The notes beneath the pieces are model-generated. The model ran no database searches and had not been told where the DNA came from. It was given only the letters and a program-made list of their open reading frames with translations. This document shows, in pieces, positions 43,176-61,938 of a DNA stretch of 64,000 bases. Source of the DNA: Candidatus Hodarchaeota archaeon (lineage in GTDB: Archaea > Asgardarchaeota > Lokiarchaeia > Sigyniarchaeales > SOKP01); the NCBI GenBank assembly GCA_048886685.1, contig JBHLKM010000007.1, positions 1 to 64,000 on the forward strand, in the 5' to 3' direction. A program made the translations under genes and the position numbers. How positions within the stretch are numbered: the stretch's first letter is position 1; the number at the start of each line of letters is the position of its first letter.

Positions 43176-43841
43176 TTACCTCCAAACTACTTCTCGTTGA
43201 TGGCCTGATTCACTCCAATTTACAGGATCTCTTAATTTAGTAAATAAATCTAATCTTCCTAAGTCTTTTAATCGGTTAAAAATTAACACCCAACCACAAT
43301 CCTTTTCATAATCGCCAACTTCACATTTACCACGAACCATTCCACCACATGGTCCATTCATAAGTGATTTTGCACAAGTTGTAATAGGACAAATTCCACC
43401 AGTCTCATTTAATAAACAATCCCCGCATCCACGACAGCGCTGATAAAATCTACCAATTCTCTCTGTCATTCCCATAAATTCTGTATTGGTAGCAATAAAC
43501 ACAGGGATTTCTGGATGCTTTCTAGAAAGAACTTGCGTGATACTAGCTACTCCTAATCCACAACTTAATGTTAGTATTGCATCTATTTCTCCTAACTCTT
43601 CGTCTATTTTGCGAAAATCTTTCATCATAACTCTATTATCACATACTTCTTCAGGAACAATAGTTATCACAACTTCAAATCCCTCTTGCTCCAATTTCTC
43701 TGCCATTTCCTTTGCGCCTTCTGTACCACCAGTTTGACACATCGCAGCACAACTTCCACATGAGACAAGCCCGATTTTATTTACGTTCTTTAAAGCGCCT
43801 AAAACTTCTTCAAATGGTTTTTTCGTTGTTATTATTGTCAT
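43176..43841 (-). CDS. metV: MetV / MTHFR C-terminal-domain Fe-S/Zn partner subunit
   Basis: C..CA..C..GG, SCGLG, CRGCGDC, GGICP..CAKSLMNGPCGG...CE...CGW; directly upstream of metF. Confidence 0.88.
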   Translation of the reverse strand: MTIITTKKPFEEVLGALKNVNKIGLVSCGSCAAMCQTGGTEGAKEMAEKLEQEGFEVVITIVPEEVCDNRVMMKDFRKIDEELGEIDAILTLSCGLGVASITQVLSRKHPEIPVFIATNTEFMGMTERIGRFYQRCRGCGDCLLNETGGICPITTCAKSLMNGPCGGMVRGKCEVGDYEKDCGWVLIFNRLKDLGRLDLFTKLRDPVNWSESGHQREVVWR

Positions 43842-44003
43842 TTTCTAATTCAATCTATAATTTTTAATTTTTATTGTAAACTTTAATTATTGAAATTAAT
43901 CATGATATTTATTATATTAAGTTATAAAATGTAATGTTTTCGAAAAGAAAAATATTAAAAACAAAAATTTATTAAAGATGTAAAAAAAATAAAAAATTAG
44001 AAT

Positions 44004-45497
44004 TTAAAATATCCCTTCCCACACCATTCTCTCAGCCTTGAAAGGATCATCCACTAACTTTACTTCAGTGCCAAAGAACATTGTAGATCTATTTTCAAGG
44101 TCATAAGGATTCCATTTAGGAATACCCTCATGGTTAGGTGTTCCATCCCTTGCAAATGAAATCCAAGAGTTCATCATTTTTTCACTTAGAATGTCGGTTT
44201 CTTTACTTTTTTTCGGAGTAATTCCTCTTGCATTATCCCCAAATCTTCCAAAAACAAAAGCAATTTCGAGTGCATGACAAGCCCCTAATTTTCCTCCCAT
44301 TTCAGGTGATTTATATGTAAAAAGATAAGAATAAACGTTAGGTTGATGTTTACATTGAGCTTCTGCTAATCGTATACCCGAGATTCTAAACCTAAAATCT
44401 GTTGATATTGCATCTAGAATTTCCTGAGGTTCTCCTTTCCGTGTTCTTTTGTATGTCTCGATGATTTTCTTAGTTACCCTCTCATCTTGATTAAAACGAC
44501 TTATCATCCTGTGGGTTCTTTTAAATAAACCCTCTTCGTCGAGAATTTCCCTTGGAGGGGTTATAGCTGTATATAATTTCGCTTCATCCTGATTTGTACC
44601 TACTATAAGTTCCACATCAGAGGCAAAGCCATCCCGAATCGCTTCAAGCGGATGTTTTGGTAATGTGTTACTATCAATATAAATGCCATATGGAAAATTC
44701 CTACCTTTTGCACGAGCTTCCAATTCCATTTTAGTTTGGACTTCCACTATTTTTTGTGTTGGTACTTTTTTTAATGCTTCAATGTCGATTTTTTTTATGC
44801 CTAGCTCAGTCATGATATGTTCAGCTCCTCTAACTCCACGTTTTGGATTAAACCAACCAGGATGAGCCGCTCCACTTTGAGAAATTACCCGATTAAACAA
44901 TCCTTTTGCTGGAGGCATCGCCATTAAAGTAGAAACTGCTGCTCCACCAGCAGATTCACCAAAAATTGTCACATTGTTCGGATTACCCCCAAAAAGTGTG
45001 ATGTTATCTCGAACCCATCGAAGTGCTGTAATTTGATCCAATTGCCCTAGATTCGCAATTTCGTCTTGAATGAAAATATAGCCGAATATTCCAAGACGGT
45101 AATTTATTGAAACGATAACTATATTACCGAGTTTTGCTAAAATCGTTCCGTCCGTTCTTGAACCGCTGCCAAAAGAAAAACCTCCTCCATGTATCCAAAA
45201 TAAAACGGGACGCTTAGCATCATCAATTTTCGGCGTCCATACGTTTAAAGTTAAACATTTCTCTTCATCTTGTAATGGACGTGGTTGAGGCGTGAAAAAG
45301 GACTCTCTCTGGGGAACATCGGGACCGAATTTTGTACAATCGAGTACACCACTCCAAGGTTCTTTTCGGATAGAGGGTTTGAATCTCAGTCCTCCGACAG
45401 GTGGTTCTGCATATGGAATCCCCTTGAATTTTTTTATCCCCCCTCTTTCATATCCTTTAATTTTGCCCTGTTTGGTTTCAAGAATTATCTCGTTCAC
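44004..45497 (-). CDS. Type-B carboxylesterase
   Basis: GIPYAEPP, WIHGGGF, FGESAG, ISQSG, ACHALE. Confidence 0.93.
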   Translation of the reverse strand: MNEIILETKQGKIKGYERGGIKKFKGIPYAEPPVGGLRFKPSIRKEPWSGVLDCTKFGPDVPQRESFFTPQPRPLQDEEKCLTLNVWTPKIDDAKRPVLFWIHGGGFSFGSGSRTDGTILAKLGNIVIVSINYRLGIFGYIFIQDEIANLGQLDQITALRWVRDNITLFGGNPNNVTIFGESAGGAAVSTLMAMPPAKGLFNRVISQSGAAHPGWFNPKRGVRGAEHIMTELGIKKIDIEALKKVPTQKIVEVQTKMELEARAKGRNFPYGIYIDSNTLPKHPLEAIRDGFASDVELIVGTNQDEAKLYTAITPPREILDEEGLFKRTHRMISRFNQDERVTKKIIETYKRTRKGEPQEILDAISTDFRFRISGIRLAEAQCKHQPNVYSYLFTYKSPEMGGKLGACHALEIAFVFGRFGDNARGITPKKSKETDILSEKMMNSWISFARDGTPNHEGIPKWNPYDLENRSTMFFGTEVKLVDDPFKAERMVWEGIF

Positions 45498-45552
45498 TAT
45501 TAGACCATCTCTCTAAATTATCCCCTAATTTTATTTCTCATAAAATTATTAA

Positions 45553-46539
45553 TTATCTCAAAATAAATTTCTGAACGTATTGATTTACACTTTCATAAGC
45601 TTTTCTACTTTCGGGTAGTTTCTCTCCAAAATTTTGAAATACATGAGTCATGTTCTCATATACTTCAAGTTTAACCTCTACTCCATCTCTTTTTGCCCGT
45701 TCGGCTAACATGGTTGAGTTGTCTACTAATGCTTCAATTCCACCAGCCTGAATAAGTAAAGGAGGTAATCCTTTTAGATCAGCAAAAACTGGTGAAATTA
45801 AGGGATTATTAAGTGGTTCCTTCTGAGCATATAATTTTGCCATGTTTACAATTCCATCCTTATCTATTAAAGGCTCAAATTTTTTGTTTCTAATAATAGA
45901 TTCTCCGCTTCCTGTAAGATCCGCCCATGGTGACATCAAAACTGCTGCTGCGGGAAGTAGTATATTTAACTCTTTAAGCTTTAATAAAGTTGCGATTGCT
46001 AATCCGCCACCCGCTGACTCACCACCGATAATCATCTTTTTCGGGTCAAAACCTCTTGATATCAACCACTTGTATGATTCAATTGCATCTTCTAAAGCTG
46101 CTGGAAAAGGGTGTTCTGGCGCTAAACGGTATTCAATATTCAAACATCGTAAATGAGTGGCTCGCGAAAGGTGATAGGGGATTATTCGACGGCTTTTTAA
46201 ATTTCCCATGATATATCCTCCACCGAATAAATTATAAAACACTTTATCTTCGTGAGCTCCAGGAACAGAAATCCACTCTGCAGGAATGTTCCCAATTTTA
46301 AATTGTTCAATTACTACGTCTTTGGGGATACTTTTCGCCCTTTCTTCACCTAAATTGTCTGAAATATAGCGATTGAATTCTAGCATTGTTTTTGCATCCA
46401 CATTTCCAGAAGCTAAATCCCTATATGATATACCTTTTTGAGACGCAAACTCTCTACCTACCTTTCTTCTAAATTCAAAACTTTCCTCTATTAAATCACC
46501 AAGTTCCTTATGAACTTTCGAAATTTCTTGATATGCCAT
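45553..46539 (-). CDS. Hormone-sensitive-lipase-family esterase
   Basis: FGGGY (for HGGG), YRLAPEHPFPAA, GESAGG, HVFQ. Confidence 0.9.
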   Translation of the reverse strand: MAYQEISKVHKELGDLIEESFEFRRKVGREFASQKGISYRDLASGNVDAKTMLEFNRYISDNLGEERAKSIPKDVVIEQFKIGNIPAEWISVPGAHEDKVFYNLFGGGYIMGNLKSRRIIPYHLSRATHLRCLNIEYRLAPEHPFPAALEDAIESYKWLISRGFDPKKMIIGGESAGGGLAIATLLKLKELNILLPAAAVLMSPWADLTGSGESIIRNKKFEPLIDKDGIVNMAKLYAQKEPLNNPLISPVFADLKGLPPLLIQAGGIEALVDNSTMLAERAKRDGVEVKLEVYENMTHVFQNFGEKLPESRKAYESVNQYVQKFILR

Positions 46540-46720
46540 TTTTACTCACCAAATTCATTATTAATTATTAAATTATAAATTTAAAATTCATTAAATTGTT
46601 TATGCAGATTTTTAATTTTGGAGATATTTCAAAATTATTCCTATAATTGATAGAAAATAGAAATAGTAATTAGCAGATGTGTTACCAGAATAATGATTTG
46701 ATTATTGAATATAAATTAAT

Positions 46721-48535
46721 TTATTGAGTAAAAATTTCATTAATCACAGTTCTAAGAGCAGCAGGTTTATCGAGGCCCAACATCTCGCTGGTTTTGACTG
46801 ACTTATTGAGCGCTTGCCATATTTCCGAATTCTCCCGAATCGCTTCTGAAAAGCGGGTTAACTTCTGCAACGCGGGATAAGATTGGCCTTTAATTACGTA
46901 GCATGCCAAAAAGGGATCAACGGGGTTAATAAGGATTGTATTTTCTCCAATTCTGATACGGTCAATGGATTTGGAGAACAATTCAGAACTGAACGTATTA
47001 AACGCTGACATAAAAGCGCTAAAAATATCATCAACATCCCATTCACCTACAAATGTATGATTGAAGTATGTAACCCCGCTACTGTCCATAATAAGAAGCA
47101 AGATAGGTTCTTCATCTTCTATCTCAGGAGCTTCAATTACCCCCCTATCTTGTAAACGTTCAAGTACACCATCAATAGACGCTAACTTCAAGCGTTCTGC
47201 CACTGATGCTTGCGTTTTCTTAAAAGATTCCCAGAGATTTAATTCTTCCAATAATTTATCATGCTCTCTCGATATCTCGGTTGCTAATAGTTGGAGACCG
47301 TGTTCATCTGCAATTTTTTGTGCTTCAGCTAACAATCTTCTCGCTTCCACCAAATTTATTTGAACCAGAGCTAATTTCGCCTGGAAGAGTTTTACGTTAG
47401 CTAATAATGAATATGAATTTCGACGTATCGCATTTCTCTGTAAGAGATCTATAAGAGGGAAAATGTCATCCAATATTTCCATCTGATTGGTTAACTGAAA
47501 TTCTTGGAAATATATATCACATAAATTAATTAAGGCCAAGTGAATAAGACCCCCCCCTTCTTCTATAAGATTTTTTAAAATATGTTCTGCTTTGACACGA
47601 TCACGCATTCTACTGCTTGATTTCAATATTAGTGCAGTAGTTAACTGATATATATAATTTATAGCAGCAGTAGACTCATGTCTCTCGTTAAGAAGTTTAA
47701 ATTCGTCAAAATAGTGTTGCAATTCATCATTTTCTTTTTTGATAAGAAAAATGAGTATAATTACATAGTATGTCCCAGCTATCCAATATCCTTCCTCAAA
47801 TTTTTTATAGATTTCAAGACTACTTATATAATATTCTAACGCACGGTCAAAATCTCCTTTATAGTAATATATTGCTCCCATAAGACGGTAAAACTCTGCT
47901 TTCTCAAAAAGAGGTCCGTGATAATTTGACTTAGAAATTAAAGAAATGGCTTTTTCACCACATGATAGTGCGAGATTTAATTCTCCTTTGAAGAAATAGA
48001 CCCAACCCTTTAATCCCTGTACGAAAGTGAGTATAAATGAAAGTGGATCTTTTTTTTCATAATATTCTATACATTTATCAGCATATTCTAAGCTCTGATC
48101 AGGTTTTCCAAGGAAAAAGTCTCTCGTGGCATAAATAGCATCCATATCTGCTTCTATTTGTGGATAATTCAATAAATCTTCCTGATGAATTGATTTAAAA
48201 AGGCTATCAATCAGTTCATAATTCTTAACAAGTTCAACATACTCAGCAAATGTTGCAAAAACCGACCATTTGACATGAAGCGCATCAAAGGAAAAGATAG
48301 CTTTATTAAATTCTTGACTAGTTTGGTAAAGGTTTTCAGCGGTCTGAAGTGCTAATTCGAATTCTCCGAGCCAAAAAAAGAGAAAACTTTTAATCCCTTG
48401 AATATTTAATCTCTCTTCAAGTGTTAAAGCTTCTTTTTGTTCCAAATCATTTAAATATTTAACAGTTTCTTCAAATTCTCCATTATCAATTAAGGTCTTT
48501 GCTTTGATTATTTTCTCAGAAGGTAGAATAATCAT
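46721..48535 (-). CDS. TPR-repeat protein with a C-terminal longin/roadblock-like alpha/beta domain
   Basis: TPR helices (GAIYYYKGDFDRALEYY); C-terminal ILLLIMDSSG..F...FSAFMSAFNTFSSELF...IDRI domain. Confidence 0.8.
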   Translation of the reverse strand: MIILPSEKIIKAKTLIDNGEFEETVKYLNDLEQKEALTLEERLNIQGIKSFLFFWLGEFELALQTAENLYQTSQEFNKAIFSFDALHVKWSVFATFAEYVELVKNYELIDSLFKSIHQEDLLNYPQIEADMDAIYATRDFFLGKPDQSLEYADKCIEYYEKKDPLSFILTFVQGLKGWVYFFKGELNLALSCGEKAISLISKSNYHGPLFEKAEFYRLMGAIYYYKGDFDRALEYYISSLEIYKKFEEGYWIAGTYYVIILIFLIKKENDELQHYFDEFKLLNERHESTAAINYIYQLTTALILKSSSRMRDRVKAEHILKNLIEEGGGLIHLALINLCDIYFQEFQLTNQMEILDDIFPLIDLLQRNAIRRNSYSLLANVKLFQAKLALVQINLVEARRLLAEAQKIADEHGLQLLATEISREHDKLLEELNLWESFKKTQASVAERLKLASIDGVLERLQDRGVIEAPEIEDEEPILLLIMDSSGVTYFNHTFVGEWDVDDIFSAFMSAFNTFSSELFSKSIDRIRIGENTILINPVDPFLACYVIKGQSYPALQKLTRFSEAIRENSEIWQALNKSVKTSEMLGLDKPAALRTVINEIFTQ

Positions 48536-48782
48536 TGGTGTTGCAATTTATTTTCATTGAATTTAAAAAAATGGAAGTAGCTTTCCCTTTTAAGCCTTGT
48601 GTACCACAATTTCGATTCAAGATTTTTTTTTTTTTAGTTTTTCAAAGAAATTTTCATTAAAATCAGACGCTGAATTTACATTTCCATTCCAAAAGAAAGA
48701 TATTGAGCAAAGTATGTATTATCACTTAAACGTGAAGAATCAATTAAAATTATATAAGAAAATTTATATAAGAAAAAGTAGT

Positions 48783-49052
48783 TTATAAAGGAAATACTTC
48801 CTCCGCTTGCGTCTCATCAAACTCTATCTCGCGCAATTTAATCCGAATCTCGCGAGGGGTGTAGGATTTTCTTAACAGCTCCAAAATCGCATTGTTAAGA
48901 TTAGTTAAATTATCCATCGCTGCTTGACGAAAAAAATTCTGCTCGTTAAAGTTGATATTAATGATTTCGTATAAGCCGGTCAGGCACTCCCGAATATCGC
49001 GATAATTTTCCATCGCATCTTCCAATTTTTCTAATTTTTCTTCTTGACCCAT
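48783..49052 (-). CDS. Small helical hypothetical protein (89 aa)
   Basis: ATG with SD GAGGG and an A-rich leader; GC higher than flanks. Confidence 0.75.
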   Translation of the reverse strand: MGQEEKLEKLEDAMENYRDIRECLTGLYEIININFNEQNFFRQAAMDNLTNLNNAILELLRKSYTPREIRIKLREIEFDETQAEEVFPL

Positions 49053-49652: not shown

Positions 49653-49994
49653 ATGGAACCACTTCAAAAAATAGAGGAAGAAGCCCAGGCAATAACCGAC
49701 ACACAGAGGAGTCAAATTTATGAGTTTGCCCGCGAAGTCAGTAAGGACACCTTAGAGGAAGTCTGTCCAGCACTGCTCAACATAGCCATTGAATCAGAAA
49801 GGGGGTTGCTCAAAAACCAGCTAGGGAACGTGATATTCCACCTTCAAAAAAACGAGCGCATCAACACGGTCATTGGTTTACAAAAGCTCATTGATGCGGC
49901 ATTAATAGTCAATCCTGAGGCAATGTTCAAGATTTTCGAGGAATCGGATACGGATGCCCAAGCTCTCGGCAAAAAAATAAAAGCAGTATTATAA
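49653..49994 (+). CDS. Small helical hypothetical protein (113 aa) with two homologous fragments elsewhere in the window
   Basis: Strong BRE/TATA promoter; homologous remnants at 51441-51482 and 59689-59799. Confidence 0.8.
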   Translation: MEPLQKIEEEAQAITDTQRSQIYEFAREVSKDTLEEVCPALLNIAIESERGLLKNQLGNVIFHLQKNERINTVIGLQKLIDAALIVNPEAMFKIFEESDTDAQALGKKIKAVL

Positions 49995-50001
49995 TTTTTT
50001 T

Positions 50002-50399
50002 TCACTCACCTATCTTCATTATATTAAGCTCTGTTATTGCAGATTGAGATTTAAAAAAATCCATATAAATACCTCCCCAAGTAAATCCTTGAATTGAACA
50101 CCTAGGCAATTTGTATACGATCCCTTCTGGTCCTAACATCACAAAAGATACTCCTATTCTCAGAAGTCCAAGAATTAAATAGTATAGAGTAAAACCACCA
50201 GAGACTACCATACAAGTACTAAGAATAATTACCCTATATTCCGGAATAAAAATTGACAATATTATTCCAAATATTAACCCGAAAATTAATATATAGCATT
50301 TATGATATCTTCAGGAGAAGATATCATCCCAAATTCATAGTTTCCTTCTTGATAGTTATGAAATTGCAATAGGTACTCCTCTAAATTTTCTATACTCAT
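50002..50399 (-). pseudogene. Degraded membrane-protein gene
   Basis: SD plus ATG at 50399 (MSIENLEEYLL...) hits a stop after ~37 codons; hydrophobic 85-aa frame 50002-50259 continues downstream. Confidence 0.45.
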
Positions 50400-50656
50400 T
50401 TAACCCTCTATATTTATTTTATCCCATCAGATTATTATTCTATACTACTGTTATTATTTCTTCAATATTTAACATTTCTGTAAGAAAAAAATCCAATTTT
50501 ATAACTTTAATTTCTGATGGAGCTTTTTAGCCGCATTTTCGTCATTTTTGTCACTACAAAAGATTTGGGAAAGTTAGAAGTCCAAGTAAAAAATTAAAGC
50601 CCTAAAAAAATAATAATAAAATCTTTTTGTTCATATATTATTAATAGGGCATTATC

Positions 50657-51388
50657 ATGACTATAAGAAAGCTTATAAAAAATGTTTTAGAAAGAGTTAT
50701 AAAAATATTTAGTATTTTTGTACTTTATAGTTCTGTCTTAGTAGGAATCCTCGCTCCAATGTTACTTATTGTCGGAGGTTTCTTCAAATTTCTTGATCAC
50801 TTTCATTGGATTTCTTGGTTTTTTGCAGATCCAACAACTTATTCAAAAGATCTTATAGTTTGTTGGTTGAATTCAGTTTTACATTGCTCTTTTTTTTACT
50901 CAGATACCTGGGTGTATTTAAACGTAATGATATTTGTAGCGGGTCTTATTCTTTTCATTATTTCTTTGGCATGTCTAGTAATTGGAATTAGAAAGAATGC
51001 GGGGTTAGTACAAGAGAGAATATATAAACATATAAGACATCCTCAAAATTTCTCTATTATTATTATGGCTTTTCCATTATTCTTTTATCGATATGGATTT
51101 AGGTTAGGAGATTTTATCTCATGGATTCAATTTATATTCCTAATAATTATCTATTCTGATCTTGGAGATATTAAATTAAAAAAGAAGTATCCAGAAGAGT
51201 TCCAATCATACTATGAAAATACTGGTTTTTTTCTTCCCAGGATTTTCCCTTATCGAATTAGCTATTATTTCTCTGCCATCTATAACAAAAAGTATCGATA
51301 TCCATTTCTACTTCTAATTTATATCCTAACTATTTATGTACTCTATCAACTTTTTTTGATTTTACCATTTTATTGGGCAACAATATAA
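50657..51388 (+). CDS. ICMT/PEMT-family membrane methyltransferase-like protein
   Basis: IYKHIRHPQ, LKKKYPEEFQSY..NTGFF; multiple TM segments. Confidence 0.75.
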   Translation: MTIRKLIKNVLERVIKIFSIFVLYSSVLVGILAPMLLIVGGFFKFLDHFHWISWFFADPTTYSKDLIVCWLNSVLHCSFFYSDTWVYLNVMIFVAGLILFIISLACLVIGIRKNAGLVQERIYKHIRHPQNFSIIIMAFPLFFYRYGFRLGDFISWIQFIFLIIIYSDLGDIKLKKKYPEEFQSYYENTGFFLPRIFPYRISYYFSAIYNKKYRYPFLLLIYILTIYVLYQLFLILPFYWATI

Positions 51389-51440
51389 ATAAACTTCTCT
51401 TTAATGATTCATAAAGACATTGAGAATCAATGACAATCCT

Positions 51441-51494
51441 GATGCCCAGCAACTCGCCAAAAAAATAAAGGCAGTATTATAAGTTTTTTTCATT
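51441..51494 (+). repeat. Displaced diverged copy of the 3' end and terminator of the 113-aa gene (partner 49953-50006)
   Basis: gatgcccagcaactcgccaaaaaaataaaggcagtattataa versus gatgcccaagctctcggcaaaaaaataaaagcagtattataa; DAQQLAKKIKAVL* versus DAQALGKKIKAVL*. Confidence 0.85.
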
Positions 51495-51526
51495 CTTATT
51501 TTAATTCAGTCAAATTGATCGAGTTT

Positions 51527-51615
51527 ACTTTTAAGACAATCGGAATTTTAGGGTTCTTTCCCCACACGTTCTTGTTTTCCAGGATATTATTTTTCATGAG
51601 ATTTTATATCTTCTA
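51527..51615 (-). repeat. Displaced copy of the 3' end and downstream region of the flavodoxin-family gene (partner 52068-52160)
   Basis: ~90-bp direct repeat starting acttttaagacaatcggaattttagggttctttc and containing ttatttttcatgagatttt (stop and last codons). Confidence 0.9.
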
Positions 51616-51705
51616 ACTTAAGATTATAGCTGAATCCATCCCAAATATCCGGATCAAAACTATTTTAAATTAATCTATTATCTTTTACTAATAACGAACT
51701 TCTAT

Positions 51706-52059
51706 TTGTGTCTTATGTTTTTCTTAAATTCATATAGCTATCATATACCACAACAAATTCTTGGTTTTCTCATAGTTTTTGGAATCCCATTGTTGATCCT
51801 TTTTGAATTATACTTCACAAAAATACGGAAAATAAAACAGGTCAAGATAATATTTGGAGTTGTTTCGATCATTTATGGTTCAGTTATTATCATCATAGCA
51901 ATATGGGGAAATATAGAATTTACAAAATATTTAGAAAATAGGGAGTATTCTATACTAGGGCCCGATTATCGCTTTATTTTTATTTTATGTATCGGACTTT
52001 TTATAATCTTAGTCATACGTGGAATGATTTTAATTAATAAGAGCAAGTATGTTGAATAA
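51706..52059 (+). CDS. Small 3-TM membrane protein flanked by direct repeats
   Basis: 117-aa hydrophobic ORF; exact start uncertain. Confidence 0.65.
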   Translation: MCLMFFLNSYSYHIPQQILGFLIVFGIPLLILFELYFTKIRKIKQVKIIFGVVSIIYGSVIIIIAIWGNIEFTKYLENREYSILGPDYRFIFILCIGLFIILVIRGMILINKSKYVE

Positions 52060-52131
52060 AATAACCAACTTTTAAGACAATCGGAATTTTAGGGTTCTTT
52101 CTCCACACGTAAGATCTTGTTTCCCAGGATA

Positions 52132-52719
52132 TTATTTTTCATGAGATTTTTTATCTTCTAGTAGTTTTACTGCTTTTCTTCCTAGGTTGTACGCTTTTAA
52201 CAATTCATCTTTTTTTTCTAATATTTTTCCTTTTTGATAACAAGCAGGGACACAGATATCCCCAATATAATTTCCTCTAAGAACTTGAATTGTTAATTTC
52301 ATTGGTTCAGTGATAAAACGACTATGCTCATAATCATCCCTACCAAACGTACATAATATTATGTGCCCTTTACTATTAAATCTATCAGCATAACGAGGAT
52401 TATTAAAATATGAAGAAAACCTATCAATAAAACATTTCATTTGTGCGGAAACACCATGCCAATAGAGAGGACTTGCCCAGATGATGAGATCAGATTCTAA
52501 AAATTTATTTAGAAGTTGGGGGTAATCATCATCTGCCCGTAAATCTTCTCTGTTTCGACTATCATCGACTACCTCACCGATAGGTCTTATGTGAAAATCA
52601 TCTAAATAGATTTTATCAACCAAAGCTCCTACTGATTTTGCTCCCTTTAAAACTTCATCTGCCAATAAATCCGAGTTCCCTTTTTTTCTAGGACTTCCTA
52701 ATAATGCTAAAACTTGCAT
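52132..52719 (-). CDS. Flavodoxin-like/NADPH-dependent FMN reductase (Isf-like, Cys cluster motif absent)
   Basis: GSPRKKGNS, ASPLYW..VSAQMK.FIDR. Confidence 0.85.
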   Translation of the reverse strand: MQVLALLGSPRKKGNSDLLADEVLKGAKSVGALVDKIYLDDFHIRPIGEVVDDSRNREDLRADDDYPQLLNKFLESDLIIWASPLYWHGVSAQMKCFIDRFSSYFNNPRYADRFNSKGHIILCTFGRDDYEHSRFITEPMKLTIQVLRGNYIGDICVPACYQKGKILEKKDELLKAYNLGRKAVKLLEDKKSHEK

Positions 52720-53166
52720 AATAATAGCAATAATATGAAAGTTGTTTTAGATTTTATCATTATTTAGGAAATAGGATATACATTATTGATGTTATCTCAG
52801 TTAGTTTGTAAAACAAACTATAATAGCTATCTTAATTTTATGATCTTCTCTTTAATATGCCTATTAATCCACCTAGAATATCATACTATATAAAAAAAAA
52901 AGATTTAGGAAAGTTAGATTTCTTTCATAATTTTTTATGGATTTTTTGTAAGAAAGTCTTTTGTTATAGTCAAGTTCTGATTTTGAGAAAGGAATTAGAC
53001 TCCAATAGTATTCTAAGATCTAGTAAAAGGGTCATTAATAGGGCGATCAGAATCGAAGAGATAATGTGAACTTTTAAATAATTATACTAAATTAAATAGA
53101 TTACTGGAATTAAATAATATGCAAATTAAATAGAATGTAATAATTAAATAGAGGTTAATATTTGTT

Positions 53167-54048
53167 ATGGGAAGACTTAATGAAAAAGTTGCGGTGATTA
53201 CTGGGGGCTCAAGTGGTATAGGGAAAGCGACTGTTGAGCTCTTCATTAAAGAGGGTGCTCGCGTTGTGTTTGGTGATATTCTTGATCAGCAAGGAAAAGA
53301 GATTGCTGAAAAACTTGGGGATAATGCTTCTTATATCCATACGAATGTAAGATTCGAGTCCGACATTAAAGCTTTATTAGACCTTGCTGTTAATAAATAT
53401 GGGAGAATTGATATCTTATATAATAATGCGGGTTTTGGGGGTGCATTAGGATTAATTGAGAATATTCCAACCGATGCATTTGATGTAACAATGGAGGTTT
53501 TATTCCGAAGTGTATTTTTGGGAATAAAGCTTGTAACCCCAATCATGAAGGAACAAGGTTCAGGAAGTATAATAAGTACGTCCAGCGTAGCTGGTATGCA
53601 TGGAGAAGGGCTTCACATATATAGTTCAGCAAAAGCGGCGATTATTCAATTTACGCGTTCTGTTGCAAAAGAACTTGGTGAATATGGCATTCGTGTAAAT
53701 TGTATTTGTCCAGGCGTTATCGCAACCCCTATATTTGGAAAAGCATTTGGACTCCCCCAAGATCAGGCGGAAAGGATGGCTGAAATGATTAAGGCTATGC
53801 CAACAGAAAACCAACCTATAAATCGTAGAGGAATTCCTGAAGATATAGCTAAAGCAGCTTTATGGCTTGCAAGTGAAGATTCTGGATTTGTAACGGGGCA
53901 TGCATTGATAGTTGATGGAGGGCTTTTGGGGGGCCCAAAATACTCAAAATCTATTGAAAGTTATGAAATGATCGCAAAAACCCTAAAATTGGGAGATTTA
54001 GAGGACATTTTCAATAAAGTAAACGAAAGAATCGCTGAAAGTAAATAG
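53167..54048 (+). CDS. Short-chain dehydrogenase/reductase
   Basis: TGGSSGIG, NNAG, SS, YSSAK, VNCICPG. Confidence 0.93.
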   Translation: MGRLNEKVAVITGGSSGIGKATVELFIKEGARVVFGDILDQQGKEIAEKLGDNASYIHTNVRFESDIKALLDLAVNKYGRIDILYNNAGFGGALGLIENIPTDAFDVTMEVLFRSVFLGIKLVTPIMKEQGSGSIISTSSVAGMHGEGLHIYSSAKAAIIQFTRSVAKELGEYGIRVNCICPGVIATPIFGKAFGLPQDQAERMAEMIKAMPTENQPINRRGIPEDIAKAALWLASEDSGFVTGHALIVDGGLLGGPKYSKSIESYEMIAKTLKLGDLEDIFNKVNERIAESK

Positions 54049-54251
54049 CACATAAAATTATAATATTTTTTTCACTCTTATTTTATCTCAATCGATTCTT
54101 AAATCGGCGCAAAACTAAAAGTCGGGTGAATATTGAAGAAAAACAACGTATTGATCTTGACTACTGATACTTTAAATCATAGATATCTTCAATTTTCTCA
54201 TAGAAAAAATCATAAATATACTAATATTTTTAACATTAAATTGTCAAAGAA

Positions 54252-55847
54252 TTGATGGAAAAAATGAGTAATTCAGTTATTAAAACTGTTGATTTATTTT
54301 ATAATCCAAAGTCAGTTGCAGTAATTGGTGCTTCGAAGGTTCCAATGAAAGGTGGGAACCGTATAGTTAAAAATCTATATAGAAATGGCTACAAAGGTCA
54401 GATTTATCCTGTTAATCCCAACTATAATGAAGAAGATGAACTATGTGGTTTCCAATTTTATAAAACTGTTTTAGATATAAAAGGGGAGGTAGATCTTGCC
54501 ATTTTTTATGTAAACAATCGTATTGCAACTAATATTCTTAAAGATTGTGTTAAGAAAGGAATAAAAGCGGCAATAATCCAAAGCGCTGGTTTTGAGGAAG
54601 TGGGGGTAGAAGGGTTAAAATTAAGGGATGAAATTGCTGCTATTACAGAAAATTTCTCTAAATTACGTATTATTGGTCCTAATTGTATGGGAATCAGTCG
54701 CTTCGATGGGGATTATGATGATAAAAAAGGAGGTTTCTTCACTGGACAATTTACTCTTAGGAATTACAAAAGAGGTAATGTGGCGATCATCACCCAGAGT
54801 GGTTTCTTGAATGGAGGAATAGCGCCACTGATTTTTCGTCAGTATCCAAATCTTGGATTTAGGTACATCATTTCAATTGGAAACAAGATGGACTTGGGAG
54901 AAAATGAATTTTTAGAATACATATTAGAAGATGATACTGTGAATGTCATTGCGATATATTTAGAGTCATTTAAAGACCCTAGAAAATTCATCTCTTTATG
55001 TAGAAAAGCAAAACAAATGCCTAAAAAAACTATTATCCTTGTAAAAGGTGGAAAAACAAGCCAAGGGATGAAAGCAGCTTCTAGCCACACAGGTGCTTTA
55101 GCTGAAGATGAAAGACTAATTGACGCTATTATAAAACAAGCAGGAGTTATTCAAGCAAATAATTTTTTTGAAATGTTCCAATTTCTAAGAACATTTTCCA
55201 TGATGTATAAATCCGGTAAAAAATTCCCTAAGAAAGGAAATATCGCTCTTGTTGTTGGGAGTGGAGGTATGGGAACTGTAATGGGGGATGTTGCTATGAA
55301 ATATGGTTTAAAGTTCCCTGAATTTGGTGAGAATAGTTATAACATTCTTAAAAGTGTATTCCCTGATTGGATGCCTCCAAACCGATTTGCTCTCGTTGAT
55401 TCTTGGCCTACAATGGAAAAAGCAATGATGGATGCAGCTAAAAAAGCCAAAAGTACTACTAAAAAATCACCGAATAAGACTACTACAAATGAAAAAGAAA
55501 TGAATCCATTTCGTATGATGGGTTCTTTTGGAAATGTTATGGACGTAATTCAAAGAGCCGTTTTAGAAGAACCTAAAATAGAAGGATTGTTCACATCAAT
55601 GCCAGGTGGTCCAAGAGGACGTGAAGGAACAATGGGTTTTATGACACCGATGCTTGAACGCATAGCAAAATACCCGAAACCCGTTTTCTTTTATTCAGTA
55701 ATGGAAAGTGAGGAATCTTTGGAGATGTTACGGTTGTATGGCAAGTATAATATTCCTTTTTTTAACAGAACTGAAGATGTTGCCAAGAATTTTGCGATTT
55801 TGGTCCAAGAAACAAAGATTAAAGAAAGATTTTTAAAAACATTTTAA
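54252..55847 (+). CDS. Acyl-CoA synthetase (NDP-forming), alpha-subunit/CoA-binding family
   Basis: PKSVAVIGAS, IGPNCMG, ITQSG, AASSHTGALA phospho-His motif. Confidence 0.9.
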   Translation: MMEKMSNSVIKTVDLFYNPKSVAVIGASKVPMKGGNRIVKNLYRNGYKGQIYPVNPNYNEEDELCGFQFYKTVLDIKGEVDLAIFYVNNRIATNILKDCVKKGIKAAIIQSAGFEEVGVEGLKLRDEIAAITENFSKLRIIGPNCMGISRFDGDYDDKKGGFFTGQFTLRNYKRGNVAIITQSGFLNGGIAPLIFRQYPNLGFRYIISIGNKMDLGENEFLEYILEDDTVNVIAIYLESFKDPRKFISLCRKAKQMPKKTIILVKGGKTSQGMKAASSHTGALAEDERLIDAIIKQAGVIQANNFFEMFQFLRTFSMMYKSGKKFPKKGNIALVVGSGGMGTVMGDVAMKYGLKFPEFGENSYNILKSVFPDWMPPNRFALVDSWPTMEKAMMDAAKKAKSTTKKSPNKTTTNEKEMNPFRMMGSFGNVMDVIQRAVLEEPKIEGLFTSMPGGPRGREGTMGFMTPMLERIAKYPKPVFFYSVMESEESLEMLRLYGKYNIPFFNRTEDVAKNFAILVQETKIKERFLKTF

Positions 55848-55906
55848 CCTTTGGAATGGTGCTTGTACTTAGTTATCTTATTTGGTTCGGAATCCATTCC
55901 AACAAG

Positions 55907-56071
55907 CTATTTATTTCACAAAAAATATTTTCGAATATAAAAAATATATAATTGAGGAAAATTTTAGTTATAAGTTTAATAATTCAATAAATTGCTTTAC
56001 TCCTCGATTTGGATCATATTGCATATGTGGATTGGTAGAACTAGATATAATGAAAGTATTTTCAGGAAATC
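55907..56071 (-). repeat. Displaced diverged copy of the 3' end and downstream region of the PLP-enzyme gene (partner 59802-59968)
   Basis: FPENTFIISSSTNPHMQYDPNRGVKQFIELLNL* versus FPENTSIIPSSATPHMYYDPNRGVKQFIELLKL*; coding parts offset by 3897 bp. Confidence 0.9.
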
Positions 56072-56130
56072 CATTATATAGACTATGTCTATAAAGATAG
56101 ATTTAAATATCTAATTTAGTAATAATAAAA

Positions 56131-56625
56131 TTGAGGATCGAAATGAAATACTTACATTCAGTAGCTATAATTGGTCTTATAGGGAGTTTATTATTAATAT
56201 ATGGTTTTTTTGCTTTATTAAATTACATCTTTGAATATGCGACAATTTTAAGTGGATTTGGTTTGACATATCAAATTATTAGCTCAGATCTTCTAACATT
56301 TTTTATTTTAAATGCCATATTGCAATTGATTTTTGGAATAATTGCGTTGATTTCTTCAATATTTGTGATTAAAGAAAAGAAAATAGGTGTTTACATTTTA
56401 TTTTGTATTGGTATTATTACTTCAATATTTATGTTTATAGTTATCTATCCACGTCAAGAATATATGTTATCACCAGATATAACATTAATTATTGGACCTA
56501 TACGATTATTATCTAATCATACAATTGATATTACTCCTTTTATTATTCTAATTGCTGGATTATTACCCTTTATCCTTAAATCTGATGAGTGGGTAATTAT
56601 CAACAAAGACAAAAAGATTAGTTAA
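56131..56625 (+). CDS. 4-TM hypothetical membrane protein
   Basis: 164-aa hydrophobic ORF. Confidence 0.7.
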   Translation: MRIEMKYLHSVAIIGLIGSLLLIYGFFALLNYIFEYATILSGFGLTYQIISSDLLTFFILNAILQLIFGIIALISSIFVIKEKKIGVYILFCIGIITSIFMFIVIYPRQEYMLSPDITLIIGPIRLLSNHTIDITPFIILIAGLLPFILKSDEWVIINKDKKIS

Positions 56626-56815
56626 TGTCTAATAGTTTAATAGTCTAATAGTGGTTTTAATTTTTCTTGGAATAATAACATTGGTAGTTGTCTTACTTTT
56701 TGCTCCCGGTAGAAGTGAAAAAATTTTTGGTATTCTAACTTTTCTTGCTGTACTTCTTATAGTTATTCCCTTTTTCATCTTTATGTTATTTTATCAAAAG
56801 ATAAGATCTAGTTAA
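56625..56815 (+). pseudogene. Translationally coupled 2-TM small protein frameshifted by an 8-bp tandem duplication
   Basis: TAATG overlap at 56623-56627; (c/t)taatagt three times at 56629-56652; removing one unit joins the ATG to VVLIFLGII...QKIRSS*. Confidence 0.6.
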
Positions 56816-57005
56816 TTTTATTTAATTTAATCAACGTTTTTTTGCTGTTTTTTCCTTAATTATCTATACTATAAAATTGATATAGAGAGTATCAAATTCG
56901 AACATCAACTGTTTTGATTTGTAAGATTTAAATTGAATGGAACTTATAGGAAGTAAAGCATAACACTCTCTATAATCCAATGGTATATATAGAGATCAGA
57001 AAAAA

Positions 57006-58094
57006 ATGAAAGAGAATAAAGTTATTACTGATATAGAGCAGCTAACCCCGGAATGGTTGACGAATATCTTCAAGAATAAGGGTTACCTTAGCCAAGGAAA
57101 AGTTACAAAAATAATTAAGAAAAAATCGCAAGAAACCATTACTTCTTTTGTGTATTTCTTAGAGCTAAACTTTTCAACTGATGCTCAGACAGAACCACCT
57201 TCTCGTGAATTAGTTGTAAAAATTTCAAAACACAATGATGAGTTCAAAATTTACGGGAGACAAGAAGCTAAATTTTATAATATCATAGCTGAAAACATGA
57301 TTGAAATGCCAATTCCAACTTGCTATGATGCGGTATTTTCTGAAGAAACTGGTTTGTCTCATATTATCCTTGAAAATATATCGAAGACCCATGAAACATT
57401 GTTGAACTTTCCTTTTGGACCACCTCCTTCAAAACAACATTTTGAAAAAGCGATTGATAGTTTAGCAGAAATTCATGCTTTTTGGTGGGATCATAAAAAC
57501 CTTAAGGAATTATCTAAACAATCAAGAGGACCTCTTTCTCTTTTTTTAACAAGAGTAAGAAAAGAGGCACTTCAACGTTTTTTAGAAGACGTTGGAGATA
57601 AAATGAGTGATAACAGAAAATCACTATTGAAGAAAATATTTTCATTATATCCCCAAGCAGTAGATGAGCGAATCGCAAAAAAAAATCTAACTATAATACA
57701 TACTGACGCTCATTTAGGGCAATTTTTTTATCCAAAAAATAATGATAATGAAAAGTATAAAGCGATACTAAGTGATTGGCAAGGTTGGAATATCGGTGTA
57801 GGAGGTCTAGATCTAGCATATATGATTGGGCTTTTTTTATCCCCCGAAAACAGACGTTTAATGGAAAAAAAACTTATCAAACGTTATCATAGCCATCTTA
57901 TTAAGTTGGGCATAAAAAACTATAACTGGGATAAGTGTTGGTATGATTACAAATTATTTACATTTTTAAACATTTACCACTGTATCTGGTGGTGGAATGT
58001 GGGTATGGTTTCTTCTTCCTTCTTCTGGGCTAGATTAGAAACATCCATTGCTACCATAGAAGATTTAAATTGTATGGAACTTTTAGAAAGCTGA
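57006..58094 (+). CDS. Aminoglycoside/choline kinase-like phosphotransferase (EcKL-like)
   Basis: LVVK, QEAKFY, LA.IHA, IIHTDAHLGQ (HxD), SDWQ, DLAY. Confidence 0.85.
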   Translation: MKENKVITDIEQLTPEWLTNIFKNKGYLSQGKVTKIIKKKSQETITSFVYFLELNFSTDAQTEPPSRELVVKISKHNDEFKIYGRQEAKFYNIIAENMIEMPIPTCYDAVFSEETGLSHIILENISKTHETLLNFPFGPPPSKQHFEKAIDSLAEIHAFWWDHKNLKELSKQSRGPLSLFLTRVRKEALQRFLEDVGDKMSDNRKSLLKKIFSLYPQAVDERIAKKNLTIIHTDAHLGQFFYPKNNDNEKYKAILSDWQGWNIGVGGLDLAYMIGLFLSPENRRLMEKKLIKRYHSHLIKLGIKNYNWDKCWYDYKLFTFLNIYHCIWWWNVGMVSSSFFWARLETSIATIEDLNCMELLES

Positions 58095-58248
58095 AGTACC
58101 TTTAAGAACTGAAAGAACAAAGTCATAACAGTTTCATAATCCCAATTTTTTAGGTTATTAAGAGTCTATTTTTAATAGTTCTATAAGCATACTTATATAA
58201 ATGCTTTGAAAAAAACAACATTTATTTGATGAATAATTATATTTTATT

Positions 58249-59568
58249 TTATACTTGTTTTCGGATTAAATATTTTCTAAGGTATACTAGAGAAATCACG
58301 ATTATTAGGATATGTAGAATATAAATATTTCCTAATGAAATGGTTAGTCTATCCCCATTGCCATCTTCAAATAATTCAACACGAGATAAGAAATATACCG
58401 AATTGTCTGGAGAATAAGTTCCAGCAACAATATTATTACCATCAGACGAAATTGCTACTTTAGATACAGCATATCCGGTTTGGTAACTCCACAATGGTAC
58501 AGAACTAGAATTTTCGAAAAAGGAGATCTTATTTTTCTCATAGCCTGCTATTAAATAAGTACCATTTGAAGATATCGCAACTGAATTTACATTATTATCC
58601 ATTTCAGGAGTTTCATAGCTCCATAGGTGTGTTTTTGGTAAAGTTGTTGAATTATCAAACAAATAAATTGTACTTTGTAAAGTACCAGCAATTATATAGT
58701 TATTATCGGATGATATAGCTATTGTTTGTACACTTGGGGTGGGAGTATTATAGCTCCATAAAGGAGTGGAACTATCTTTTTGAAAAAGATAGACATGAGA
58801 ATCTAGAGTTCCTGCTGCAATATTATTACCATTTGCCGAAATCGATACAGAATAAACCCATGATCCAGTATGGTTATTCTATATTGGCAATTTAGGAGTA
58901 GAAATCGAATTATTGAATAGGTATACGTATGAGTCATAACCTCCTGCTACAATATAATTTCCATCAGCCGAAATTGATACCGAATTTGGAGTATCAGATC
59001 TTAAAAAGTTCCACATAGGTGTTTTTGGTGTTGTAATTGAATTATTAAATAGATAAATTTTATTATCACCACCTGCTACTGCTATATATTTTCCATCCGA
59101 AGAAATAGCTACATCTTGTACTACTTTAATCGCTGTTTGATAACTCCATAGTGGGGTTTTTAGGGTTGCAACTGATTTGTTAAATAAATAGATTTTACCT
59201 ATACTAGACCCCGCTACAATATAATTCCCATTTGAAGATATCGCAACTGTCTGAACATTATTCCCTGTATTATAGCTCCATAATGGTGTTGAATTTGAAT
59301 TCTCGAAAAAGTAAACCTTATCATCATTGCTACCTGCTACAAGATACTTCCCATCGGAAGATATATCTACTGACCATATTGCCCCTTCTGATCTATAAAT
59401 CCATGCTAAATTAGTTCCTGAACTCTGTGGATGAATATTATATCTATCATTTATTTTTCTGGAAATTTCACTCTCTTTGAGAAAATTGAATGTTGTCTGA
59501 ATGCTTATTAAAAATGTAAAAATAAATATGAACTTAATAATTATTATTTTTTTTCTCATTGTTACCAA
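58249..59568 (-). pseudogene. Membrane-anchored WD40/PQQ-like beta-propeller protein split by one TAG (58879-58881)
   Basis: Repeats V.IS.DG.Y.VAG..D..VYLF....TPLWSY continue in frame across the stop, which sits where the repeat Trp is expected; N-terminal signal/TM and C-terminal TM. Confidence 0.85.
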
Positions 59569-59688
59569 TCTAGAATTAGTTTGTCTGATAAATAATGTAC
59601 AAAAATTGTCTTTAGGTTAAGATTTATTTAATCAAATACATAAGCTTTCTGCTAAAATATTTAGATTTAAAACTTTCTTATTTGAAAA

Positions 59689-59799
59689 ATGGAATCACTC
59701 TATAAAATAGAGGAAGAGGCCATAGGAATAACAGATTCGTAACGAGCTCAAATTTACGAGTTTGCCAGGTCAGTTAGTAAAGAAGTCCTGGAAGAGGTG
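59689..59799 (+). pseudogene. 5' fragment of a homolog of the 113-aa gene (49653-49994)
   Basis: MESLYKIEEEAIGITDS*RAQIYEFARSVSKEVLEEV versus MEPLQKIEEEAQAITDTQRSQIYEFAREVSKDTLEEV. Confidence 0.85.
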
Positions 59800-59864
59800 T
59801 ACTATTTATTTTGTAAAAACAATTTCCAAGTAAAAAAAAAATAAATAATTCAGAAAAATTTTAG

Positions 59865-61040
59865 TTATAATTTTAATAATTCAATAAATTGTTTTACTCC
59901 TCGATTTGGATCATAATACATATGTGGAGTGGCAGAACTTGGTATAATGGAAGTATTTTCAGGAAATCTTCCCGTGAAATTAACAATAATACTTTTAGAT
60001 TTGATACTTTTTGTAGAATTAATGGCTCCGATGAAAGCAATCAACCCACTTTTTTCAAGTTCAAAAAATTTTAAACCTAATTCAATGGTAGGATACACTC
60101 TCGCGTTGACCAATTCTCTAATTATATTTTCCTTATGATTGAGGATATCCTTGTTTGAAACCTGTGATGTGAGAATTCTTCCACCGTCTTTTCTCCAACG
60201 GACAAATCTTTCTATAGCATATATAGGTTTAGAACTTCCTAATGTAGTTTCAATATCCGAAGTTTCATATGTCCTTTCCTTAAATACATCTAAAGGATTA
60301 TTACCCATGGAGTGCTCATTTAAAGCATCAACAATAGGCGTTGATACATTACTTACTGGTTGAACCACTAAAATCTCGGGACTTAAATTCACTTGCGAAG
60401 CATATTCAATGAATCCTATTGGACCTACACCTCCAGATACAGTCTGGACATAACATATATCATTATTTAATAGATTCATATGATCTAATACAAAACCAAT
60501 TTGACCATATGCAGCTGTTTTTAGATTTGCATCAGCTAGAACAACCTTATATGATTTTGACATCTCTTTCATGAGTTTTGTGGCAAAATTTCTTATATTA
60601 TCTAGTGATGAATTTCTTAAGATAATATATTTCACATAAGGATTGTTTTCAATTACACTTTGAGATACTTTGAAAGAAGAGATTTCAGGAACCAACAAAA
60701 TTCCTTTGATTTCCTTCTTTGATTCAATATTATACTTTTTTAGTGATCTCGCCAGAGATTCAACTGTATTTCCAGATGAAGTTGAGATTATATAGTCAAT
60801 TTCATTCTTATCATATACATGAAGTAAATACTGACAATCGACGTCTTTAAAAGTTGGTGTACTCCAGCATATACAAAATACTTTTTTATTAGGTATTAAC
60901 TCAGGGATATATCTAACAGATATAGGTATGATTGGAAAATATTCGGATTGGATCTTCCTTCCTGTCAATTTAAAATAAATGTTATCACTAAATTTCCAAT
61001 TATTTCCTCCAATATAACTTGAAGAAATTGTATTTGTCAT
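59865..61040 (-). CDS. Divergent fold-type II PLP enzyme (threonine/cysteate synthase-like)
   Basis: TPTFKD (Schiff-base Lys), TSSGNT, YVQTVSGGVGP phosphate loop, VNFTG. Confidence 0.75.
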   Translation of the reverse strand: MTNTISSSYIGGNNWKFSDNIYFKLTGRKIQSEYFPIIPISVRYIPELIPNKKVFCICWSTPTFKDVDCQYLLHVYDKNEIDYIISTSSGNTVESLARSLKKYNIESKKEIKGILLVPEISSFKVSQSVIENNPYVKYIILRNSSLDNIRNFATKLMKEMSKSYKVVLADANLKTAAYGQIGFVLDHMNLLNNDICYVQTVSGGVGPIGFIEYASQVNLSPEILVVQPVSNVSTPIVDALNEHSMGNNPLDVFKERTYETSDIETTLGSSKPIYAIERFVRWRKDGGRILTSQVSNKDILNHKENIIRELVNARVYPTIELGLKFFELEKSGLIAFIGAINSTKSIKSKSIIVNFTGRFPENTSIIPSSATPHMYYDPNRGVKQFIELLKL

Positions 61041-61362: not shown

Positions 61363-61938
61363 ATTATATCTCATGAAAGAAAAGGTCAAAAGAACTCGGT
61401 TCATGCTACAATTTCCCATGAATCTTATGAAATTTTACAGCAATATAAAGAAGAATTTGGTTCAAAGTCTGCTGTTGTAGATGCTGCACTCAAATCGTTG
61501 AAGAAATCTAAAGAACCACACTTAGAGGATCAAAAAAGAGTATGGTGTAGAGCCAGAGATGAACTAAATATGCTCTTGGTTGGAAAAACGACCTTTCTTA
61601 GTTATATTAAAGGTAAAGTTAAGGAGGCTTACACAAAAAATATTGCTGTTGAAACAATTGAATGGTATTTAGGAAAAAGGATAGAAAGTATGACTTTACA
61701 AGAATTTTTGGGAGGTCTTAAAGGAATGTGGCTTGTTGCTAATTATTTTTATAGTATAGAATTAGAAAAAAATGAAAAAGGTACTTATCAAATGAGATTC
61801 AATCATGAATTGACAAAAGATTATAGCATTTTCTGGGCAGAATACTTCGAGAAGCTATTGATCGATAATTGGGGATGTTTTATTGAGGCTTTCATCCGCA
61901 ATGAATCTTTTTATTTAATTATTAGGAAAGAATTATGA
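61363..61938 (+). CDS. Ribbon-helix-helix regulator with a C-terminal putative ligand-binding domain; probable ATT/ATA start
   Basis: KNSVHATISHESYEILQQYKEEFGSKSAVVDAALKSL RHH pattern upstream of the track TTG; SD AAGGTG at 61352-61357. Confidence 0.7.
   Translation: MISHERKGQKNSVHATISHESYEILQQYKEEFGSKSAVVDAALKSLKKSKEPHLEDQKRVWCRARDELNMLLVGKTTFLSYIKGKVKEAYTKNIAVETIEWYLGKRIESMTLQEFLGGLKGMWLVANYFYSIELEKNEKGTYQMRFNHELTKDYSIFWAEYFEKLLIDNWGCFIEAFIRNESFYLIIRKEL

Follow-up and report, generated by a model that had tools for sequence, protein, structure and literature searches.

Within a 64,000-nt window (contig C7:1-64000) of a metagenome-assembled genome (MAG) from a Loki-type Asgard archaeon (Promethearchaeia; 4.42 Mb, 47 contigs, 31% GC), we analysed three direct-repeat pairs, named A, B and C, in which an intact gene is followed by additional DNA, the cargo, and then by a displaced and diverged copy of the gene's own 3' end, the scar. 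We lean, a little past even, towards reading these pairs as the scars of three separate acquisitions, each made by homology-anchored, one-ended illegitimate recombination with DNA from close relatives. All three pairs are present at the positions given in a preliminary description of the window, which had also pointed out their common geometry.

Three displaced gene tails in the window

Pair A is anchored in gene X (49653-49994, plus strand), a 113-aa core gene of the genus that forms the left anchor of a hypervariable island. The in-gene copy of the repeat (49953-50007, plus strand) comprises the last 13 codons of X, its stop and 13 nt downstream, and matches scar A (51441-51495, plus strand) over 55 nt with 85% identity (E 2e-9). 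The intervening cargo (50002-51388) holds an 85-aa minus-strand open reading frame (ORF), a doubtful gene, and a 243-aa multi-pass membrane protein (50657-51388, plus strand); neither a Pfam match nor a recombinase was found in it. Pair B is anchored in a gene matching Pfam FMN_red, of the FMN-reductase/flavodoxin-like type (52132-52719, minus strand), whose tail with 64 nt of downstream DNA (52068-52160, minus strand) recurs as scar B (51527-51615, minus strand; ~9 codons plus ~60 nt downstream), the two being 92% identical over 93 nt with a single 4-nt indel. Its cargo is a single gene for a 117-aa membrane protein (51706-52059, plus strand), and a paralogue of this gene, encoding 120 aa, lies at C7:65562-65924 beside another scar.

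Pair C is the longest of the three. It is anchored in a fold-type II pyridoxal-phosphate (PLP) enzyme gene (59865-61040, minus strand; assigned by Pfam), an accessory gene found in 4 of 17 congeners. The in-gene copy (59802-59968, minus strand) and scar C (55907-56071, minus strand), which retains 33 codons of the enzyme's tail, the stop and 63 nt downstream, align over 167 nt with 86% identity (E 5e-49). Cargo C (56131-59568) encodes a 164-aa membrane protein (plus strand), an EcKL/APH-type kinase (57006-58094, plus strand) and a WD40 propeller protein (58249-59568, minus strand) whose gene is broken by one TAG at 58879-58881. A feature absent from the preliminary description lies between this cargo and the anchor, where positions 59686-59799 (plus strand) carry a decayed homologue of X, limited to the first 38 codons, 74% identical at the amino-acid level, interrupted by one in-frame stop and directly abutting repeat C. 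On its other side, scar C runs into an older context (53167-55847) made of an SDR gene (53167-54048, plus strand) and an ADP-forming acyl-CoA synthetase-like gene (54252-55847, plus strand), the latter assigned by reading its translation, with no Pfam scan.

All three repeats start abruptly within the 3' coding part of the intact gene and continue past its stop, by 13, 64 and 63 nt in A, B and C, respectively, and in scars A and C the reading frame is kept up to the homologous stop. Scars A and B are separated by ~30 nt, and the stops reconstructed from them lie 104 nt apart, a normal spacer for convergent genes.

The WD40 gene deserves a remark of its own. It spans 439 codons and predicts a signal peptide, a WD40 propeller and a C-terminal transmembrane anchor, its in-frame TAG occupying the position held by a tryptophan in the other repeats. 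The gene is either a very recent pseudogene or one that uses a read-through codon.

Recurrence across the genome and the genus

The geometry is not confined to the window. When the genome was compared with itself, short local repeats (40-300 nt, with less than 20 kb between the copies) proved direct in 158 instances and inverted in 6, and the direct ones include 13 clean "gene tail, cargo, scar" pairs, namely A-C and ten others (D-M) located on contigs C4, C5, C6, C8, C9, C15, C19, C23 (two) and C34. Repeat lengths range from 55 to 223 nt and identities from 80 to 94%. The scar is distal to the intact gene in 13 of 14 tail pairs, including all the clean ones. The same geometry is also found beside tandem genes, and its mirror image occurs at gene 5' ends in 5-6 pairs, so that the process would be specific neither to 3' ends nor to convergent terminators; no common motif was found at the 13 targets or joints. 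These observations argue against the specialised, cassette-like process at convergent terminators proposed in the preliminary description, as do the variable boundaries at X (residues 13, 33, 60, 60 and 97, see below) and the lack, at the A, B and C joints, of the junction repeat that is characteristic of the genus.

One of the 5' cases lies just outside the window, where an SDR gene is enclosed between the real head of a radical-SAM gene (66863-66988) and a relic of that head (C7:65914-66039). The relic covers the first ~36 codons, with the first cysteine of the CxxxCxxC motif changed, and its neighbour is the 120-aa paralogue of cargo B.

The self-comparison also returned repeats of another kind. 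The assembly holds thirteen 100-N scaffold gaps flanked by 77-nt overlaps, at positions that include C4:18386, 188342 and 207889, C5:10858, C11:15015, C12:81576, C22:10993, C24:1102 and C38:4750, and these overlaps suggest that the assembler's largest k-mer was 77. Nine of the gaps appear as perfect 77-nt direct repeats 177 nt apart. We rejected these as genuine repeats and treated them as assembly artefacts, the one inspected (C4:18386) being a gap flanked by a duplicated 77-nt overlap.

The genes that serve as anchors include a proteasome beta subunit, an ABC transporter, NrdD and an Lrp/AsnC regulator. Cargo is mixed on the scale of the genome, with methyltransferases, ICMT/PEMT-like membrane enzymes, a glyoxalase, oxidoreductases, regulators and a Ras-family GTPase next to DUF285, beta-helix and beta-propeller surface proteins, while case M has no cargo ORF. 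The characterisation of cargo as small membrane or surface proteins, often decaying, is therefore roughly right for the window (membrane proteins of 243, 117 and 164 aa and the TAG-broken WD40 gene) and does not extend to the genome as a whole. The related proposal of a variable surface-gene array does not survive the presence of methyltransferases, oxidoreductases, regulators and a GTPase. This Ras-family small GTPase gene (C23:29642-30181; Pfam Ras, E 5e-49) belongs to cargo flanked by a displaced FMN_red-SCP2 gene tail, which places a eukaryote-signature gene in mobile accessory DNA.

Mobile-element enzymes are nearly lacking. No integrase, transposase, nuclease or restriction-modification (RM) gene was detected by Pfam scan in the window's cargo and the cargo of D-L, nor in the islands downstream of X in the congeners G001, G002 and G016. 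Profile searches of the whole assembly returned a single match to the tyrosine recombinase family PF00589 (C2:183383-183856), probably a chromosome-dimer resolvase, none to PF00239 (serine recombinase) or PF01609 (DDE_Tnp_1), and none above the cut-off to PF07282 (TnpB). The acquisition scars at gene ends, for which no integrase had been seen nearby, thus have none elsewhere either, the lone PF00589 match being far away; MAG binning may have stripped such elements. An origin from homing endonucleases or mORFs was ruled out, no LAGLIDADG, HNH or GIY-YIG domain having been found in any cargo.

Seventeen congener genomes (G001, G002 and so on) served as the comparison set. X is present in all 17, with syntenic genes of 309, 221 and 89 aa upstream of it, while the DNA downstream of X differs in every species as far as a 199-aa gene (C7:73290-73889 in our genome). 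The interval from X to this gene spans 23 kb in our genome; in G004, G002 and G001 it is 2.9, 5.4 and 10.9 kb long, respectively. This association of a conserved upstream block with variable downstream DNA places pairs A-C at the left edge of a hypervariable island. Four congeners have displaced X fragments of their own, with arrays in G002, G016 and G001: G002 carries residues 60-113, with stops, 3.9 kb from X; in G016, residues 13-113 are repeated at 7.3 kb and another fragment covers residues 60-110; and G001 carries residues 33-80. Each fragment is closest to the X gene of its own genome, and their starts differ (97 here, 60 in G002, 13 and 60 in G016, 33 in G001), which argues against a fixed att site. 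Displaced fragments also follow nrdD in G007, and fragments of an Lrp/AsnC gene lie downstream of it in G004, G007 and G014; longer regulator fragments were not counted, since they could be stand-alone RAM-domain genes.

Empty sites were recovered for two of the thirteen pairs. For case F, 13-14 congeners lack the DUF285 cargo, and their proteasome gene is directly followed by homologues of the gene pair located behind scar F in our genome; scar F retains the C-terminus of the family, now with a nonsense change, and its downstream DNA resembles that of G017. For case I, 14 of 16 congeners have nrdD directly followed by the gene that follows scar I. The scars of F and I therefore lie in the older context and the cargo would be the newcomer. 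In G006, the cargo I gene occupies the same site downstream of nrdD, without a scar. This ICMT/PEMT-like membrane gene (C15:66188-66950) is 89% identical to its counterpart on G006:C21 (92-95% in the core), against 80% for nrdD, a greater closeness than that of the flanking gene, which argues for a recent between-species move of a single-gene unit.

No empty site for A, B or C was found among the relatives examined. The PLP gene and its conserved divergent partner, a 146-aa gene (61498-61938, plus strand), adjoin each other in all 4 congeners that have the PLP gene, with different downstream DNA each time, so that C has no empty site. Scans of metagenomes and genome collections yielded three metagenomic relatives whose flavodoxin-like gene shows 88-89% identity, the homology ending within a few bases of the start of repeat B on one side and 62 nt upstream of the start codon on the other. 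Each relative has its own C-terminus and its own neighbours, and these divergent contexts leave no empty site for A or B.

The genus also possesses a conserved intergenic repeat of ~50 nt (core GGTAAATTCAGCGTCTGATTTCAATGAAAATT), with 41-45 copies in the genome. Copies are co-oriented within each array irrespective of the orientation of neighbouring genes, and often stand at contig ends. Arrays occur at C15:89-112 kb, C25:0.8-11.2 kb and C12:153-167 kb, and on C34 and C19, and a scan of one of them returned no Rfam family; the repeat is also found downstream of the flavodoxin gene in metagenomic relatives. The window contains a copy at 48636-48689 (minus strand). Upstream of X, the 221-aa and 89-aa genes, which in congeners are immediate or almost immediate neighbours, are separated by two esterase/lipase genes and a 604-aa TPR-like gene (43841-48783); this segment represents a second insertion within the conserved block and extends as far as that copy of the junction repeat.

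Origin of the scars

Whether scars descend from former alleles or from duplicated targets can be judged from the substitutions that separate them from the intact tails. In the coding sequence of all 13 pairs, the differences at first, second and third codon positions number 54/48/105 (chi-square p = 7e-7), and the pooled ratio of non-synonymous to synonymous divergence (pN/pS) between tail and scar is 0.29, whereas a value of at least ~0.5 would be expected if the copies had begun identical and one had decayed freely, a value with which the pooled data are incompatible (z about -3.8). Pair J shows 13 synonymous and 0 non-synonymous differences (P about 1e-6 under a duplication model) and pair G shows 8 against 3. 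The frame is kept in 10 of 13 scars, and no pair exceeds 94% identity, though younger pairs are the easiest to detect. Taken together, these patterns indicate that several scars would once have been working alleles, their displacement being recent compared with their divergence. The preliminary description had made this claim for the window, preferring former alleles to target-site duplications; it stands for the pooled set, and clearly for J and G, and is unproven for A and C.

Homology-facilitated illegitimate recombination (HFIR), one of two routes that had been put forward for the window, gives the best fit. Incoming DNA from a closely related lineage would bring its own version of the gene, in full or at the least its 3' part, with other genes behind it. 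At one end, the donor DNA would pair by homology within the shared gene, while the other end would be joined illegitimately inside or just beyond the 3' end of the resident gene. Equivalently, a break in the 3' part of the gene could invade the donor copy, copy the donor tail and cargo, and be end-joined back. Either way, the gene would be left intact with a replacement tail, followed by the cargo, and the resident tail would be displaced downstream, where it would decay next to its old neighbours. Repeated events at one anchor would make the island grow outward, and no dedicated recombinase would be needed. A single process of this kind could account for the intact gene, the direct orientation, the variable inner boundary, the truncated relics borne by cargo and the missing recombinases, as well as for the hotspots at island borders and the range of divergence between tails and scars; the outer boundary would fall at or near the stop because donor and resident contexts part there. 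The same route has been proposed for arrays of orphan 3' ends in Rhs and type VI secretion system (T6SS) loci (PMC5361080). The enzymology (RadA-type pairing followed by end joining), the route of DNA entry and the identity of donors are suppositions of this model, as is a common origin of A-C with the better-resolved cases.

Several observations weigh against this interpretation. Pair C counts 2 synonymous and 7 non-synonymous differences (pN/pS about 0.9), and the non-synonymous changes of its scar fall on positions conserved in 19 homologues, which gives scar C the appearance of decay. Pairs C, A, F and H would be explained equally well by copies that were identical or nearly so at first and decayed afterwards, and A, B and C on their own offer too few data, which leaves the allele claim unproven. 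No donor allele was found for A-C, nor for F, I and J, where tail and scar are mutually nearest among 14-19 congener copies, and none of the 61 PLP homologues from a large protein database presents the C-terminus of scar C as a live allele. The high-identity block shared with G006 in case I leaves out the nrdD tail, so that the donor, if any, was not G006-like. In no relative are X and the flavodoxin-like gene, or the synthetase and PLP genes, neighbours; the ancestral pairs for A-C are thus reconstructions only, including the convergent pair that the preliminary description had drawn from scars A and B, whose ~30-nt distance and 104-nt stop spacing do hold. Lastly, HFIR is a rare event next to ordinary homologous recombination, its frequency being lower by several orders of magnitude in the bacteria in which it was measured (PMC5361080).

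Among other explanations, insertion with long target duplication (ILTD) is a live rival for individual cases, C included, and rather unlikely as the explanation of the pairs. Here a staggered break or gap at a gene end would be filled on both sides of the insert, both copies being derived from the resident gene and identical at first, with decay of the distal one afterwards. The flanking of inserts by 55-223-nt direct repeats without mobile-element genes resembles what PMC2853133 describes for bacterial RM genes; both copies align to a single target in the empty-site congeners of F and I; the synonymous and non-synonymous counts of C, F, H and A are close to those expected for one constrained and one neutral copy; and the changes of scar C at conserved positions agree with decay. 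Against this, the counts of J and G cannot result from the neutral decay of a copy, the pooled pN/pS falls below the expected minimum, the cargo does not consist of RM genes, and the ceiling of 94% identity contrasts with the 93-100% of the published repeats consulted. Another possibility, which we regard as improbable, is an integrative element bearing the gene tail on its attP, of the type of e14 or phage 21 in icd, whose tyrosine or serine recombinase has since disappeared or works in trans. In geometry the pairs match icd and pseudo-icd' (163 bp) around e14 exactly (PMC6379469), and recurrence at the same genes in several species recalls an attB hotspot. Yet neither the scanned cargo ORFs nor the islands of relatives hold a recombinase, the assembly has one PF00589 match and no PF00239, the boundaries at X vary between genomes, the 13 target sequences are unrelated, cargo can be as small as one 354-nt ORF, and gene 5' ends show the same geometry.

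Tandem duplication of a whole gene or segment, followed by deletion or decay of most of the second copy, would find a precedent in the near-complete second X of G016 (residues 13-113) and in the tandem paralogues that are common in the genome. It is nevertheless very unlikely, since the DNA between the copies is unrelated cargo with no second copy of anything, the DNA after scars F and I is the ancestral neighbour seen in congeners, and the synonymous-only divergence of J does not fit. We hold it just as hard to believe that the tail scars are a by-product of a cassette system of the genus, whose ~50-nt repeat would mark the joints between accessory packets. The repeat family is real and marks the same kind of variable region, with the copy at 48636-48689 and another 48 nt from scar J, but the tail repeats are unrelated to it, no copy, even degenerate, was detected at the A, B and C joints (nhmmer --max), and 8 of the 13 loci have none within 2.8 kb, five of these eight having none on the contig. 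As for a strain-chimeric misassembly, it would be conceivable in a MAG scaffolded from short reads, which shows 8.4% contamination and contains 13 of the 100-N gaps, and has only the slightest probability here. There are no N gaps in or near the A, B and C loci, and the longest exact run common to the tail and scar of any pair is 12-39 nt, below the k-mer of 77, so that the repeats could not tangle the assembly graph; a false joint from cargo to mid-gene would need a shared k-mer, which is absent, and the same signature appears in the independent assemblies of G001, G002, G007 and G016. The repeat pairs are thus probably not an assembly artefact.

Significance and comparison with known systems

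Asgard genomes are thought to be rich in foreign genes, yet this assembly is nearly free of mobile-element enzymes. Read as traces of homology-anchored, one-ended recombination, the scars would constitute a record of accessory-gene entry, in units of one or a few genes, by conserved anchors, from close relatives and repeatedly at the same spots in several species, and they would mark both the borders of islands and the order of events, older scars lying further out. A stronger proposition is that gene capture at gene ends is a directed process in Loki-type Asgards, using no known recombinase, for instance through end-biased breaks repaired from sister lineages, and that it represents a main accessory-gene route in the genus. 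This we consider distinctly unlikely; if true, directed capture would be a frequent route and one of the main ones of island growth, beyond a chance by-product of ordinary recombination. With a mechanism of a known kind, the value of these observations lies in documentation and in a testable model and not in a new principle. Among the matches listed in a literature search that paired illegitimate recombination with Asgard or Loki archaea, no paper combined both.

The nearest counterparts are found in Rhs/CdiA and T6SS effector-immunity loci, whose C-terminal displacement arrays have been explained by HFIR (Jackson et al. 2009, cited in Kirchberger et al. 2017, PMC5361080). These arrays share with our loci an intact gene with new DNA behind it and, in unchanged orientation, older 3' ends left as orphans, serial arrays, the absence of a recombinase, and a proposed anchor in the conserved part of the gene. 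On the other hand, ordinary genes (X, the flavodoxin-like gene, the PLP enzyme, the proteasome subunit, NrdD and the regulator) here take the place of polymorphic toxins as anchors, the new tails are near-identical alleles and not new functional tips, no immunity-gene logic is apparent, 5' ends are hit too, and the host is an Asgard archaeon. ILTD (Nobusato et al. 2000, cited in Furuta et al. 2010, PMC2853133) likewise involves small inserts without mobile-element genes, long direct repeats of variable length over gene 3' ends and a target that is single-copy in empty sites. Its published cases are bacterial RM genes with repeats 93-100% identical, no archaeal case having survived the screen, whereas the present pairs are 80-94% identical, several with allele-type (synonymous) divergence, and carry no RM cargo.

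Two further systems resemble ours in part. In e14 and phage 21 of Escherichia coli, the insert supplies a replacement 3' end to icd and the original 163-bp end persists as a pseudogene on the far side (PMC6379469); these are prophages with an element-encoded integrase and a fixed att site, whereas here there is no integrase and no fixed site, and a cargo of one gene is possible. In integrons and integrase-less attC clusters, gene-sized units are likewise added serially by a fixed point, older units being pushed outward, but the A, B and C joints have no attC-like site, IntI is lacking, and the junction repeat of the genus is a separate feature. Aloposons (PMC8813620), which integrate at tRNA genes and carry giant genes, were considered and set aside as not relevant here. 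The loci described here thus bear a scar of a known kind, which in this Asgard archaeon affects ordinary genes throughout the genome and recurs within the genus.

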